A stretch of DNA of 64,000 nucleotides, from contig OZ024740.1 of assembly GCA_964016885.1 (NCBI GenBank), positions 41,106,001-41,170,000 of the forward strand, written 5' to 3'. Positions within the stretch are counted from its first letter, which is position 1, and every line of letters starts with the position of its first letter. This DNA is from Eledone cirrhosa. Its lineage: Eukaryota. Position numbers and translations under genes: made by a program. Under the pieces are notes generated by a model. The model was not told where the DNA came from and did no database searches. It worked only from the letters and a program-made list of their open reading frames with translations. Below, one piece after another: positions 6,531 to 64,000 of the stretch.

Positions 6531-7378
6531 ACAGGGAGAAACAACTTCTTTCATCCTATCCTTATTCTAGCTATTATGCTCTCAGAGAATTTTTCTCTGC
6601 TGTTAATTAGGTTTCCTAGATAGCAGGTGCTATCAACCACTTCTATGGCCCCTTCTGACTCGAAGAGGTTTATATCAATGACGCTCTTCCCCTCAATTAC
6701 TCCTTTGCATCTACATACAAAGTCTTCCTCTCCTGATAGTCTATTCGTTATCACACTAGATCTCTTGGGTACCCAAGATTTGTATTGTGTACATTGTATG
6801 GAGTTTATGCCTATTCCTTTTCTGCATATTGAGCAGAGCCACTTCCCTGAGGGATCAGGGTTCTACTTTCCTACTCATTAGCACTTTAGTTTTGACTAAG
6901 TTTACTCTCAGGCCTTTTGATTCCAAATTCTGTTTCCATAGTCGGAACTTATTCTCTAGTTCTTTTATGGATTCAACTCTAAGGACCAAATCATCTGCAT
7001 AAAGAAGTTTCCATGGACAGCCATGTGTATATGGTTTGCACTGCTCTCACAAGCCATTCTTCTACACCTAATTTGTTTAAGAACCACAGATAATAGATTG
7101 AGGTACTCTGTCAAAGGCCTTTTCTAGATCAACAAAAGCTAAATATAATGGCTTATTCTTGGCTAGGAACTTCTCTTGTAGTTGCTTCACTAAAGAGAGG
7201 GTATCTGTAGTTCTTTTTTCAGGTATAAAACCAAACCGCATCTCATCTAATTTGACTTTCTCTAATTAGTTGCACTATAACTTTTAATCACGTTCATAAC
7301 TTGGTCCATTAGTTTTATTCCTCTATAGTTGCTCCTTTCTAGAGCATCACCTTTGCCCTTGTAGCAATTTACGATTAT
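6530..7378 (-). pseudogene. RTE LINE reverse transcriptase fragment
   Basis: Minus-strand motifs homologous to 11323-12963 (AFVDLEKAFDRVP, PWKLLYADD, CYLG). Confidence 0.9.
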
Positions 7379-43330: not shown

Positions 43331-46300
43331 ACGACGACGACGACGACCACCACTACTAACACCACCACTACCACCACTACTAACACCACCACCACCACCA
43401 CCACCACTACTAACACCACCACCACCACCACCACCACCACCACCACCACCACCACCACCACCACTACTAACACCACCACCACCATCACCACTAGTAACAC
43501 TACTACTAACACCACCACTACCACCACCACTACTAACACCACCACCACCATTACTAACACTACCACTACCACCACTACTAACACCACCACTACCACCACT
43601 ACTAACACCACCACCACCACCACCACCACCACCACCACCACCACCACCACCACTACTAACACCACCACTACCACCACTACTAACACCACCACCACCACCA
43701 CCACCACCACCACCACCACCACTACCACCACTACTAACACCACCACCACCACCACCACTACTAACACCACCACTACCACCACTACTAACACCACCACTAC
43801 CACCACTACTAACACCACCACCACCACCACCACCACCACCACCACCACCACTACCACCACTACTAACACCACCACTACCACCACTACTAACACCACCACC
43901 ACCACCACCACCACCACCACCACCACCACTACCACCACTACTAACACCACCACCACCACCACCACTACTAACACCACCACTACCACCACTACTAACACCA
44001 CCACTACCACCACTACTAACACCACCACTACCACCACTACTAACACCACCACCACCACCACCACCACCACCACCACCACCACCACCACCACCACCACTAC
44101 TAATACTACAACTACCACCACTACTAACACCACCACTACCACCACTACTAACACCACCACCACCACCACCACCACCACCACCACCACCACTACTAACACC
44201 ACCACTACCACCACTACTAACACCACCACCACCACCACCACTACTAACACCACCACTACCACCACTACTAACACCACCACTACCACCACTACTAACACCA
44301 CCACTACCACCACTACTAACACCACCACCACCACCACCACCACCACCACCACCACCACCACCACCACCACCACCACCACTACTAATACTACAACTACCAC
44401 CACTACTAACACCACCACCACCACCACTACTAATACCACAACTACCACCACTACTAACACCACAACCACAACCACCACCACCACCACTACTAATACCACA
44501 ACTACCACCACTACTAACACCACAACCACAACCACCACCACCACCACTACTAATACCACAACTACCACCACTACTAACACCACAACCACAACCACCACCA
44601 CCACCACCACTACTAATACTACAACTACCACCACTACTAACACCACCACCACCACCACTACTAATACCACAACTACCACCACTACTAACACCACCACAAC
44701 CACCACCACCACCACCACCATCACAACGACGACCACCACTAACACCACCACTACCACCACTACCACCACTACTAATACCACAACTACCACCACTACTAAC
44801 ACCACCACCACCACCACCACCACCACCACCACCACCACCACTAACACCACCATTACCACCACTACTAATACCACAATTACCACCACTACTAACACCACCA
44901 CCACCACCACCACCACCGCCGCCACCACCACCACCACCACTACTAACACCACAACTACCACCACTACTAACACCACCACAACCACCATCACCACCACTAC
45001 CACCACTACTAACACCACCACTACCACCACTACTAACACCACCACCACCACCACCACCACCACCACCACCACCACTACCACCACTACTAACACCACCACC
45101 ACCACCACCACTACTAACACCACCACTACCACCACTACTAACACCACCACTACCACCACTACTAACACCACCACTACCACCACTACTAACACCACCACCA
45201 CCACCACCACCACCACCACCACCACCACCACCACCACCACCACCACTACTAATACTACAACTACCACCACTACTAACACCACCACTACCACCACTACTAA
45301 CACCACCACCACCACCACCACCACCACCACCACCACCACTACTAACACCACCACTACCACCACTACTAACACCACCACCACCACCACCACTACTAACACC
45401 ACCACTACCACCACTACTAACACCACCACTACCACCACTACTAACACCACCACTACCACCACTACTAACACCACCACCACCACCACCACCACCACCACCA
45501 CCACCACCACCACCACCACCACCACTACTAATACTACAACTACCACCACTACTAACACCACCACCACCACCACTACTAATACCACAACTACCACCACTAC
45601 TAACACCACAACCACAACCACCACCACCACCACTACTAATACCACAACTACCACCACTACTAACACCACAACCACAACCACCACCACCACCACTACTAAT
45701 ACTACAACTACCACCACTACTAACACCACCACCACCACCACTACTAATACCACAACTACCACCACTACTAACACCACAACCACAACCACCACCACCACCA
45801 CTACTAATACCACAACTACCACCACTACTAACACCACAACCACAACCACCACCACCACCACTACTAATACCACAACTACCACCACTACTAACACCACAAC
45901 CACAACCACCACCACCACCACCACTACTAATACTACAACTACCACCACTACTAACACCACCACCACCACCACTACTAATACCACAACTACCACCACTACT
46001 AACACCACCACAACCACCACCACCACCACCACCATCACAACGACGACCACCACTAACACCACCACTACCACCACTACCACCACTACTAATACCACAACTA
46101 CCACCACTACTAACACCACCACCACCACCACCACCACCACCACCACCACCACCACTAACACCACCATTACCACCACTACTAATACCACAATTACCACCAC
46201 TACTAACACCACCACCACCACCACCACCACCGCCGCCACCACCACCACCACCACTACTAACACCACAACTACCACCACTACTAACACCACCACAACCACC

Positions 46301-47165
46301 ATCACCACCACTACTAACACCACAACCACAACCACCACCACTACTAACACCACCACCACCACCACCACCACCACCACTACTAACACCACCACAACCACCA
46401 TCACCACCACTACTAACACCACAACCACAACCACCACCACTACTAACACCACCACCACCACCACCACCACCACCACTATTAACACCACAACCACAACCAC
46501 CATCACCACCACCACCACCACCACCACTACTAACACCACAACCACAACCACCATCACCACCACTACCATCACTACTAACACCACAACCACCATCACCACC
46601 ATCACAATTACCACCACTACTAACACCACAACCACAACCACAACCACAACCACAATCACAACCACAACCACCACCACTACCACCACTACTAACACCACAA
46701 CCACAACCACCACCACTACCACCACTACTAACACCACAACCACAACCACCATCACCACCACTACTAACACCACAACCACAATCTCCATTATCACCACTAC
46801 CATTACCACCACTACTAACACCACAGCCACAACCACCACCATCACCACTACCACTAACAACACCACAACTACCATCACCACCACCTCCACCACAACCATT
46901 ACCTCCACCATCACCATTACCACCATAGCCCCCACCAACACCACAGTTGCCACCAAAGACGCCCCCCCACCACTACCTCCACCTCAACCATAGCTCCCCC
47001 ACACAACTATCTCGATAGCCCCCCCATTATCACCACTAACACCACCACTACCGCCACCACAACCATAGCTTCCCCACACCACTACCACGACAGCGCTCTC
47101 TATCATCACCACTAACACCACCACGACTACAACTACTACTACAACCACTACTACTACCACACCAG
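43331..47165. repeat. 3.8-kb (ACC/ACT/AAC/ACA) triplet satellite with 24-bp and 1314-bp higher-order periods
   Basis: ACCACCACTACCACCACTACTAAC unit; rare markers recur at 44721/46035 and 44918/46232. Confidence 0.95.
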
Positions 47166-58089: not shown

Positions 58090-58137
58090 GTGATGATGAT
58101 GATGATGTTGACGACGACGGCGACGACGACGACGATG

Positions 58138-58169
<32 letters not shown>

Positions 58170-59410
58170 GATGCTGATGACGACGACGACGATGATGATG
58201 ATGATGATGATGATGGTGATGGTGATGCTGATGATGATGGTGATGATGAAGATGATGGTGGTGGTGGTGGTGGTGATGATGGTGATGTTGGTGATGATGA
58301 TGATGGTGATGATGGTGATGGTGATGATGGTGATGGTGATGGTGATGATGGTGGTGGTGATGATGGTGGTGGTGATGATGGTGGTGATGATGATGGTGGT
58401 GATGGTGATGGTGATGATGGTGATGGTGATGGTGATGATGGTGGTGGTGATGATGGTGGTGATGGTGATGGTGATGATGGTGATGGTGATGATGATGGTG
58501 ATGATGATGATGATGGTGATGATGATGGTGGTGATGGTGCTGATGGTGATGATGAGGATGATGATGATGGTGGTGATGGTGATGATGGTGATGGTGGTGA
58601 TGGTGGTGATGGTGGTGATGGTGATGGTGGTGATGGTGGTGATGGTGATGGTGGTGATGGCGGTGATGGTGATGGTGGTGATGGCGGTGATGGTGATGGT
58701 GATGGTGATGGTGATGATGATGATGGTGATGGTGGTGATGGTGATGGTGGTGATGGTGGTGATGCTGATGATGGTGATGATGATGATGGTGATGGTGGTG
58801 ATGATGGTGATGGTGATGATGGTGATGGTGGTGATGATGGTGATGCTGATGGTGGTGATGATGGTGATGGTGATGGTGGTGATGATGGTGATGGTGGTGA
58901 TGATGGTGATGATGGTGATGCTGATGGTGGTGATGATGGTGATGGTGATGGTGGTGATGATGGTGATGATGGTGGTGATGATGATGGTGGTGATGGTGAT
59001 GATGGTGGTGATGGTGATGGTGATGATGGTGGTGATGGTGGTGATGGTGATGATGATGATGGTGGTGATGGTGATGGCGGTGATGATGGTGATGCTGATG
59101 GTGGTGATGATGATGATGGTGGTGATGGTGATGATGGTGATGGTGGTGATGGTGATGATGGTGATGGTGGTGATGATGGTGATGGTGATGATGGTGGTGA
59201 TGGTGGTGATGGTGATGATGGTGGTGATGGTGGTGATGGTGATGATGGTGATGGTGGTGATGGTGGTGATGGTGATGATGGTGGTGATGGTGGTGATGGT
59301 GATGATGGTGATGGTGGTGATGGTGGTGATGGTGATGATGGTGGTGATGGTGGTGATGGTGATGATGGTGGTGATGGTGGTGATGGTGATGGTGATGGTG
59401 GTGATGATGC
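58090..59410. repeat. 1.3-kb (GAT/GGT) triplet array
   Basis: Direct reading; 60-bp periodicity at 59160-59400. Confidence 0.96.
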
Positions 59411-60931: not shown

Positions 60932-61875
60932 CGTTATTCCGGGTTGAATCGGAGGTAACCACAGTAAGTAAGGTACTCAATACATTGCAGAGTATAAAAG
61001 TTTTAATATAGATGAGATTCTACAGGACTAGAACTGTTTCATTCTTTAGAAATCATCAGGAATCTGGGTATCAAAAAATAAGTATGGTATTTATACAAGT
61101 GGTAGAAGAGGGTGGGGAGTGGGATGGGTGTAGGTCATTGGTTGATAGAAAAGGGATTTCATTAAAAGCTAATTCTACAAAGCTATAGTTTATTTTTATT
61201 TTTATTTTTATTTATTTTTGTTTTTAAAGTAACAAAGGCAGACAGAATTCTATAAACAGGTTCAGGAGGCATGCCATTCCTTATTATTAAGTTTCTCTTA
61301 AGCTAACAGGTGTCTATAAGATCAGTGGGGGGTCAATCATGGTAGATAGATTTAAAGGAAAGGGAGATTCTTTAAAAGCTAAAATCATTAAGGTTCTACT
61401 AAGTGACAAAGGTTTAGAGAATTCTGTAGACAAATTCAGAATATTGAGTGCATATCTTACAATTATCCTCAAATTACTCTTAAACTATTCAACTATATGC
61501 CAAAAAACAACAGACACATTCACAAGACACACTCACTCACACACTCGCGCGCACCCATAAACACACATACACAGACACACATATATACACAGACACACAT
61601 ATAAATATATTTATATATAAATAAATAAACATACACATACATACACATACATACACACACATACATACACACATATATACACACACATATATATATATAT
61701 ATACATATACATACATATACATATATATATATACACATGCACACACACATATATATATACATACATATATGTTCTAGTCCTGTAGAATCTCATCTATATT
61801 AAAACTTTTATACTCTGCAATGTATTGAGTACCTTACTTACTGTGGTTACCTCCGATTCAACCCGGAATAACGTA
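60929..61875 (-). mobile_element. HHR-bearing pLTR-like element with inverted terminal copy (family of 36120-36710)
   Basis: 60929-61035 is inverted at 61771-61875; HHR 61015-61065 (-) is identical to 36344-36394. Confidence 0.85.
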
Positions 61876-61887
61876 CATACATATATA

Positions 61888-61921
<34 letters not shown>

Positions 61922-61947
61922 CATATACATATATAAAAAAAATATAA

Positions 61948-61996
<49 letters not shown>

Positions 61997-62064
61997 CACA
62001 CATATATATACATACATACATATATACACATACATATATATATATATATATATAATATACACAT

Positions 62065-62111
<47 letters not shown>

Positions 62112-62262
62112 CACATACATATACATATATACACACACACACATACATACATATACATATATATACACACATACACACACATACCCATATACACATGTGC
62201 ACACACACACATACAAACACATACATATACATACACATACATATACACACATACACACACAC

Positions 62263-62315
<53 letters not shown>

Positions 62316-62403
62316 CACACATATATATACATACATACATATATACACATACATATATATATATATATATACACATACACACACATATATATATATATAT
62401 ATA

Positions 62404-63666
62404 TACATTATGAAGAGAGAAGAAACATTTAGATATAATTAGTAATAAAATGTATCATACCTAAACTGTTCCTAAATTCCTCGACTACGTAGTTTCGTGG
62501 CATAAACAAAAACAATATATCAAAGATATAGAGTCCTTGCGAGGTCTGCCGACTTATCAAGAGGATACCTCATTTTACTAGTCTCAAGAACGCGTCTACA
62601 CGACGTGAGAAAGAATCCCAAAAGGCGGAGGGGGAGATAGTCACGCGATATAACGGTCGAGAAACAGAGCTAAGCCTCTTATAACCACGAAGAAAATACC
62701 ACGGAGGCGGAGGGGGTATTCATATCGAGGCCGTAGAAGAGGTAGTGAAGAAGGCGAGAAGTATGAGTAATGGAAGCTTTCCAGTTGTCCCCACACCTCA
62801 AAGATTGCTCGACCAGAGGGAGTTATTAATATATTTAGAAACACACAGATACATGCGGACACACACATATATACATGAATGCATCCGCACCCAACTGTGA
62901 GTTAAGGGTGCCAACTTCACCGATGTTGCTCAATGAATGACTGGGACAGACCAATTCAGTTTGAACCAGACTGAACCAGTATCAGAGTTAAAAATACATT
63001 ATGAAGAGAGAAGAAACATTTAGATATAATTAGTAATAAAATGTATCATACCTAAACTGTTCCTAAATTCCTCGACTACGTAGTTTCGTGGCATAAACAA
63101 AAACAATATATCAAAGATATAGAGTCCTTGCGAGGTCTGCCGACTTATCAACTTCTCGCCTTCTTCACTACCTCTTCTACGGCCTCGATATGAATACCCC
63201 CTCCGCCTCCGTGGTATTTTCTTCGTGGTTATAAGAGGCTTAGCTCTGTTTCTCGACCGTTATATCGCGTGACTATCTCCCCCTCCGCCTTTTGGGATTC
63301 TTTCTCACGTCGTGTAGACGCGTTCTTGAGACTAGTAAAATGAGGTATCCTCTTGATAAGTCGGCAGACCTCGCAAGGACTCTATATCTTTGATATATTG
63401 TTTTTGTTTATGCCACGAAACTACGTAGTCGAGGAATTTAGGAACAGTTTAGGTATGATACATTTTATTACTAATTATATCTAAATGTTTCTTCTCTCTT
63501 CATAATGTATTTTTAACTCTGATACTGGTTCAGTCTGGTTCAAACTGAATTGGTCTGTCCCAGTCATTCATTGAGCAACATCGGTGAAGTTGGCACCCTT
63601 AACTCACAGTTGGGTGCGGATGCATTCATGTATATATGTGTGTGTCCGCATGTATCTGCGTGTTTC

Positions 63667-63672
<6 letters not shown>
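62404..63672. mobile_element. Non-coding HHR element, 591-nt monomer, tandem plus inverted copies
   Basis: TACATTATGAAGAG at 62404 and 62995; flip at ~63151; the inverted copy runs across the monomer junction. Confidence 0.9.
63348..63435 (+). ncRNA. Type I hammerhead, U3-A8 core (copies at 62478-62565 minus and truncated 63069-63151 minus)
   Basis: TCCTC-TTGATAA-GTcGGCA..TGCCAC-GAAA-CTACGTAG-TC^-GAGGA. Confidence 0.85.
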
Positions 63673-63720
<48 letters not shown>

Positions 63721-64000
63721 CACATACATATACATATATACACACACACATACATACACATACATATATATACACACATACACACACATACCCATATACA
63801 CATGTGCACACACACACATACAAACACATACATATACATACACATACATATACACACATACACACACACACACAAATATATACACATACAAATAAATATG
63901 TACTCAATAAATATACGCATATACGCAGGCACATAAAAACACCTCTACAAGCAGAAAATGTAGATAGGTAAGAGGTACTCACATAACCATAGTGGCCGTA

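Follow-up and report, generated by a model that had tools for sequence, protein, structure and literature searches.

A young non-coding 591-nt hammerhead element of Eledone cirrhosa inserts at (TA)n with two fixed ends, often as head-to-head twins

The window analyzed here is a stretch of 64,000 nucleotides of the Eledone cirrhosa genome (G000:C1:41106001-41170000), and genome-wide searches were run against the 3.0-Gb assembly. Near the right end of the window lies a repeated element of two arms joined head to head, whose 591-nt unit is numbered so that m1 is the first base 3' of a predicted GUC cut site. The left arm (62403-63151, ribozyme-sense on the minus strand) is 749 nt or 1.27 units long and runs from m514 to m80; the right arm (63151-63675, ribozyme-sense on the plus strand) is 525 nt or 0.89 unit long and runs from m312 to m245. 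They meet 5' to 5' at position 63151, where they overlap by 1 nt, and each terminates in a (TA)n run, the left one (62385-62405) sharing a few bases of microhomology with the arm end and the right one lying at 63670-63714. Self-comparison of the window showed that 62403-62560 and 62994-63151 are identical at 158/158 positions, giving a period of 591, and that the right arm matches the left-arm copies at 360/360 positions of 62403-62762 and 322/323 of 62829-63151. An earlier note on this DNA had described a 591-nt tandem of about 1.25 near-identical units, with an inverted copy that begins mid-monomer and spans the monomer junction. This description holds: the period is exact, the right arm starts at m312 and crosses the cleavage junction, and the copies differ by one substitution over 158 + 360 + 323 aligned bases. 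The note also saw no credible ORF, and indeed the longest stop-free frame of the unit is 86 aa and the longest ATG-started frame 75 aa; the 86-aa frame carries a 31-nt indel in an older relative by by-eye comparison.

Every unit holds a predicted type I hammerhead, with cleavage deduced from the DNA. The copy in the right arm is complete (63349-63434, plus strand; stem I 63349-63352/63431-63434; predicted cut after 63430) and has a U3-A8 core at 63353-63359, a long stem II and a palindromic loop III. A second complete copy lies in the left arm (62479-62564, minus strand; predicted cut after 62483), and a partial one (63070-63151, minus strand) is truncated at the core by the flip and is left without the 5' strand of stem I. 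Nothing in the window reached the Rfam gathering score; the hammerhead call is based on the motif together with covariation among 20 copies (20 of the 21 chosen as less than 95% alike among 91 distinct ones). Across this set 91.9% of cells pair, compared with 33-49% in slid controls, two-sided changes occur at 9/31 pairs (reached by 0/500 shuffles), and the loop III palindrome is maintained through paired changes; these controls are lenient because the copies are related and the structure was derived from one of them. Folding predictions gave -58.9 kcal/mol for the dimer versus 2 x -22.6 for the monomers, and z -4.9 for the 591-nt circle against 40 shuffles. By these substitution patterns, compensatory selection acts on the ribozyme fold across the subfamilies. 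The window has four more hammerhead-like motifs, which belong to other families, at 946, 22807, 27660 and 53779, the last on the minus strand and with a U3-A8 core. The window also holds long degenerate trinucleotide arrays at 43346-46944 (~3.6 kb) and 58091-59409 (~1.3 kb).

The element sits inside a coding PLE, here called PLE-A, in its inverted 3' arm. This arm comprises 3' UTR and pLTR, occupies 60933-64000 on the minus strand and extends beyond the window to L031:5690. PLE-A is itself a head-to-head insertion, with an ORF at L031:5701-7978 that has a stop near 6790 and continues in another frame; its 3' UTR is rich in microsatellites, and it has two 3' ends 69 nt apart. A solo piece of host-pLTR tail (~105 bp, window 61771-61875) lies in a TA run of the host's own left arm, and the sister arm of the host is without it. 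Around the element, a compound microsatellite of the host forms a tandem duplication with a first copy of ~320 bp (61948-62266) and a second copy (62267-63873) that the element interrupts (62267-62402 and 63676-63873). The exact core of the repeat measures 115 bp (62153-62267/63760-63874), and the repeat ends ~135 bp before the left junction. The earlier note had implied that this flanking duplication belongs to the insertion. The microsatellite is indeed repeated, but the duplication runs through the insertion site and the microsatellite is present just once in the host's sister arm (L031:5690-9412), so the duplication is not a TSD, and the reading of it as a long TSD was rejected. The element is thus nested in the 3' UTR of another PLE, and the duplication is an event of the host, which may have preceded the insertion or come about by unequal exchange afterwards. 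The equality of the ~165-bp length once given for this duplication and the distance between the two end sites of the element was put down to coincidence.

A search of the assembly with the unit yielded 336 candidates, of which 40 were scored. Set 1 consists of 37 loci with 62 arms, biased to long arms and close identity (one segmental duplicate excluded). Set 2 was not selected for length and comes from the first 62 m80 junctions on C1, of which 61 were taken (the window locus being excluded) in 60 stretches; after exclusion of two rearranged loci of the 60 it holds 91 arms, with L172 scored as single despite a visible, very short inverted m245-type arm. Together the sets give 153 arms. Genome-wide, the exact end-junction patterns occur 1,871 times for m80 plus TA and 974 times for m245 plus TA, the latter pattern being more subfamily-specific, with 0 hits for the reversed controls. 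These counts and the arm maps describe a dispersed, multi-copy unit without LTRs. Head-to-head twins were found at 25/37 loci of set 1 and 33/58 of set 2, and the longest arms reach 4.9 and 5.9 units. An older subfamily (~72% alike, 1,794 candidates) has the same two end positions and twins too, and a second, more distant subfamily (1,592 candidates) has the first end in common and is non-coding in 30 loci. In the distant subfamily an internal 81-bp repeat, present up to ~8 times, lies upstream of the ribozyme (L055:965-2040, minus strand; L234; L239). Some loci show rearrangements of their own. Entire insertions have been tandemly duplicated along with their flanks at L039 and L178, the unique flanks of the insertion at L054:4300-6850 are an inverted duplication of one another, and at L209 (G000:C1:67614056-67622055) an arm stands head to head with an arm of a different element that bears a hammerhead-like motif and a (TA)n end, so that two templates may have given rise to a mixed twin.

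Two sites account for the ends of all 153 arms. They are separated by 165 nt, and a long predicted hairpin stands a short way 5' of each; in set 1 the terminus of 62/62 arms from the 37 loci falls at m76-81 or m238-247. The two arms of a twin end discordantly, one at m80 and one at m245, in 57/58 twins (24/25 in set 1, binomial p 8e-7; 33/33 in set 2, which is length-unbiased and in chromosome order), the exception being L037 with two m245 ends. A one-sided tail of 165 nt results. The 5' ends are scattered round the unit (KS p 0.44, set 1), and arms overlap by 0-3 nt at 18/25 twin junctions of set 1. The term 'circularly permuted' used in the earlier note thus applies to the 5' ends alone, whereas the 3' ends are fixed at two sites. 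Likewise, the minus-strand core begins exactly at the flip at 63151 as the note had said, but a tie between flip position and ribozyme core was ruled out, since 1/153 arms starts exactly at the core and 4 start within 10 nt against 5.4 expected; the coincidence at the window locus is chance. Arm starts in set 1 were not enriched at the cleavage site (7/62 within 20 nt versus 4.3 expected, p 0.14). A best-repeat scan of the set 1 flanks gave no evident unique TSD, the matches being TA or compound microsatellite; any TSD, one of more than 4 bp included, would lie hidden in the (TA)n flanks, as at the window locus.

The predicted hairpins lie 8 nt upstream of the fixed ends. Hairpin 1 (m1-72; 62411-62482, minus strand; z -3.8) precedes m80, and hairpin 2 (m171-237; 63601-63667, plus strand; z -4.7) precedes m245. 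Their pairing is kept in the older family, with two-sided changes at 1/17 and 0/21 pairs. A modest excess of stops was observed 61-75 nt upstream of the arm's own end, modulo 591 (19/153, in a stop window chosen post hoc; 33/3000 jittered sets reach 19 in a scan test), and it coincides with the 5' feet of the two hairpins. Arm-specific stops on later laps, a prediction of copying from one shared circle, numbered 10/115 versus 4/65 passes, a difference that is not significant (Fisher p 0.77).

We then compared the units within each insertion at positions covered at least twice per locus. Results showed 48 fixed, 5 partial and 49 single-unit variants in set 1 and 179, 4 and 105 in set 2, where many 'fixed' variants rest on two units only; 9 and 27 of the fixed ones, respectively, are private to their locus. 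The two arms of an insertion agreed at 23/23 informative variants in set 1 (against a mean of 4 in shuffles; 0/5000 reach 23) and at 76/84 in set 2 (differing fraction 0.10 versus 0.83 shuffled). The cleavage site is crossed by 54/62 arms of set 1 and 79/91 of set 2, up to six times, and set 1 variants included no indel at the m591/m1 junction in the 54 crossing arms. In 15/57 twins both arms exceed one unit, and in 18/57, the window locus included, neither arm fits inside its partner in register. At L039 one variant occurs in alternate units (u-4 and u-2), as a dimer circle could produce. The simplest reading of these patterns, a bottleneck of one monomer followed by copying of more than one unit, suggests a circular template. 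Runs X1 and X6 each contain one self-closing contig, of 621 and 620 nt, which we did not count as evidence for circles because tandem DNA gives the same.

A single homogeneous source locus active per cell would also give shared haplotypes. The template might then be an uncleaved linear multimer from such a locus, copied by the same PLE enzyme, with the ribozyme as a passenger or acting later. This explanation is rather unlikely in our estimate, but it is the best placed of the alternatives. It fits the unenriched arm starts at the cut site, the scarcity of unit-specific variants in young sources (0.83 per kb, set 1) and the alternating variant at L039. It also fits in vitro work on an anole PLE, which inserts normally with cleavage-dead ribozyme mutants and so has no need for cleavage, unprocessed RNA being its main substrate (PMC11167929). 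Against it, 36 variants private to one locus occur in every unit that covers the position, while partial variants number only 9, and m418 and m473, the unit-specific variants of set 1 that are common to two loci, sit on different haplotypes. Moreover, 5' truncation can only shorten arrays, yet there are arms of 4.9 and 5.9 units, and the ribozyme fold shows compensatory selection.

Alternatively, the RT could hop repeatedly from the 5' end to the 3' end of a cleaved linear monomer. One haplotype per insertion is explained equally well by such jumping, and arms ending at m80 stop in excess at m5-30 (13 versus 5.2 expected). However, arms ending at m245 stop there 0 times versus 3.0 expected and show a matching pile-up at m168-182 instead, so the stops follow the hairpins and not the cut; the junction free of indels in the 54 crossing arms is a further argument against jumping, which we regard as improbable. 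Even less probable is an origin of the second arm or the extra units at the DNA level, by fold-back of the cDNA or by local duplication with gene conversion. The haplotypes common to both arms and the occasional tandem duplication of whole insertions (L039, L178) are in its favor, but single-unit variants remain unhomogenized (49 and 105) and both outer ends are fixed and adjoin (TA)n. The lack of containment in 18/57 twins excludes fold-back self-copying in those, and the arm containment test has largely refuted such a DNA-level origin.

Four young coding PLE families were sampled as possible partners of the element: A, the host; B, with a protein of 1217 aa and 41,173 first-look candidates (L129); C, 775 aa and 18,442 candidates (L163); and D, ~900 aa and 21,270 candidates (L278). 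We take them to be PLEs from their RT and GIY-YIG-like motifs, and clade names are likewise motif-based; a Pfam search of 12 PLE-type proteins gave no family above the cut-off. All four terminate in (TA)n, and each does so at fixed sites, two or three in number, that lie close together: the spacing is 69 nt for A, 43-58 for B and 40 for D, and C has two sites. Twins of PLE-B end discordantly in 5/5 cases, and in PLE-C one of two pairs has like ends, that pair possibly not being a true one. PLE-C has a U3-A8 ribozyme and a first end ~78 nt after the cut, a resemblance to m80 that serves as a lead only. The 1217-aa protein of PLE-B contains a long insert rich in Asn, and the PLE-B pLTR showed no clear hammerhead. 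By blastn the unit has no DNA homology to the four sampled families. Local alignments of its end regions with the pLTRs of A and B were near or at shuffle level, confounded by low complexity, and folding of PLE-A, B and C revealed no such hairpins before their ends. PLE machinery is linked to the element by the mechanics of insertion and not by homology.

No contiguous PLE ORF was found in the 37 + 60 young, 30 older and 30 distant loci, with L218 as the sole exception; there is thus no ORF with RT and GIY-YIG, as an autonomous PLE would have, in or contiguous with the unit apart from that mid-ORF junction. At L218 (G000:C1:70685412-70693411, minus strand) an m80-ended arm that starts at m172 runs directly, with no TA run in between, into the middle of a PLE-D ORF, in a frameshifted copy 94.7% like the young D family over the junction stretch; this junction is a deletion or a template switch. 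The idea that the unit is nothing more than a coding PLE's pLTR, or that misassembly made the structure, draws on this direct junction and on the finding that no contig among those listed for four public runs (X2-X5) bridges the 63151 flip, but it is hardly credible, given the mid-ORF position of the junction in a frameshifted copy, a PLE-D pLTR without homology to the unit, and 58 twins of other lengths that obey the same rules amid unique flanks. The refuting alternative named in the earlier note, that the unit is a coding element's fixed pLTR, does not hold.

These results indicate a real, young non-LTR retrozyme, a class membership well supported at the DNA level, and the full PLE signature appears in how it inserts. 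The proposal of the earlier note, a young, (TA)n-associated, non-coding hammerhead retroelement probably mobilized by a PLE, gains support from the arm maps, flanks, junction counts and covariation. We consider it likely, at a probability of roughly 0.68, that the 591-nt family is a non-LTR retrozyme which borrows a PLE enzyme and is copied by it round a circle of monomer RNA, with (TA)n targets, two fixed ends and frequent twins. We infer ribozyme cleavage, circles and a partner enzyme from sequence. In this scheme a multi-unit locus would be transcribed, adjacent hammerheads would pair via the palindromic loop III, hammerhead dimers would release 591-nt monomers and a host ligase would circularize them. 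A PLE protein, probably a dimer, would then bind the circle and nick both strands of a (TA)n run. One nick would prime at m80 and the other at m245, the two ends that are fixed in the genomic copies, each priming site closely following a 65-70-nt hairpin on its 3' side and having TA microhomology of a few bases. Each cDNA would roll 0.1 to 5.9 turns to a variable stop, somewhat more commonly at a hairpin 5' foot, in keeping with the arm lengths and haplotypes. Finally, microhomology of 0-3 nt would join the two cDNA ends into a head-to-head twin, and survival of one arm would leave a plain tandem. More tentatively, and somewhat short of an even chance in our view, a twin may be the footprint of one PLE dimer on one RNA circle at two hairpin-marked sites, its subunits priming opposite strands and rolling round the same circle. 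Points against the circle and PLE model are the missing homologous partner in the four PLE families, the ends of PLE-A, B and C that are not preceded by such hairpins, the dispensability of cleavage for the anole PLE in vitro (PMC11167929), arm starts unenriched at the cut, the scarcity of two-sided changes in the hairpins, the non-significant result for later-lap stops, the like-ended twin L037 and the like-ended PLE-C pair.

In L1 twin priming, two target-primed cDNAs are joined 5' to 5' by short microhomology, the first cDNA stops at the site of the second primer, and that second site is variable. The twins described here resemble L1 in the two target-primed cDNAs and their microhomology join, which is our reading of the junctions. 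They differ in that both sites are fixed, the 5' end lies within 20 nt of the partner's site in just 8/25 set 1 twins, and both arms can exceed one unit (the 15/57 twins noted above).

Animal non-LTR retrozymes are described as tandem units that are non-coding, bear a single type I hammerhead apiece and occur dispersed as monomers and multimers, for which a circular template and PLE mobilization have been proposed (PMC7229834; bioRxiv 10.64898/2026.07.22.740005), and the present family agrees with them in these respects. Its 591 nt exceed the 170-400 nt of the expressed circles, which have been put forward as RT templates (PMC7229834), and lie within the retrozyme consensus range of 51-972 bp (bioRxiv 10.64898/2026.07.22.740005). 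Unlike retrozymes as described in the accessible parts of those two reports, it has two fixed 3' ends, head-to-head twins and (TA)n targets; no long TSD was evident here either, and no homology to a coding pLTR was found. That retrozyme circles serve as the RT template has been proposed (PMC7229834, PMC4209133). The element shares with EN+ PLEs the partial tandem, the inverted 5'-truncated copy, the tail at one end and the microsatellite target (PMC8557442; PMC11167929), and with anole Poseidon in vitro an internal RT start at two sites downstream of the hammerhead; in the Poseidon reaction both strands are extended (PMC11167929). It departs from EN+ PLEs in having no ORF, in a tail of 165 nt versus the published 30-40, and in start sites that follow long hairpins and carry TA microhomology (PMC8557442; PMC11167929). 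Its arms almost always use different sites, whereas in the anole PLE both strands use the same sites in vitro (PMC11167929). A U3-A8 core and dimer logic have been reported for PLE ribozymes, and the present hammerhead resembles PLE hammerhead dimers in this core, a short stem I, a base that bulges out close to where stem II begins and a palindromic loop III, but its stem II is much longer and two-part (57 nt from the core to GAAA) and its carrier is non-coding (PMC4209133). Earlier work already reports or proposes tandem hammerhead units, circles, PLE mobilization, inverted copies, one-sided tails and two RT starts. Searches of the accessible literature turned up no account of a retrozyme whose ends are fixed and paired, whose tail measures 165 nt or whose haplotypes were analyzed insertion by insertion; how new these features are may also depend on the model figure in PMC7229834 and on the genome maps in PMC11167929.

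The origin of tandem and inverted PLE insertions with a one-sided tail has been called open (PMC8557442). If true, the model of a single dimer on a single circle accounts for these tandem, inverted and one-sided-tail features by one mechanism. In a short, non-coding, young family of about two thousand copies, each insertion logs its start, its stop and its template haplotype on both strands, and the insertion pattern makes the copying step, with the circle as template, testable. For in vitro work on candidate PLE proteins from the same genome, the 591-nt unit also offers a minimal substrate that contains two defined start modules. If the reading is correct, these insertions would be the first genome-scale evidence for rolling-circle target-primed reverse transcription in an animal.
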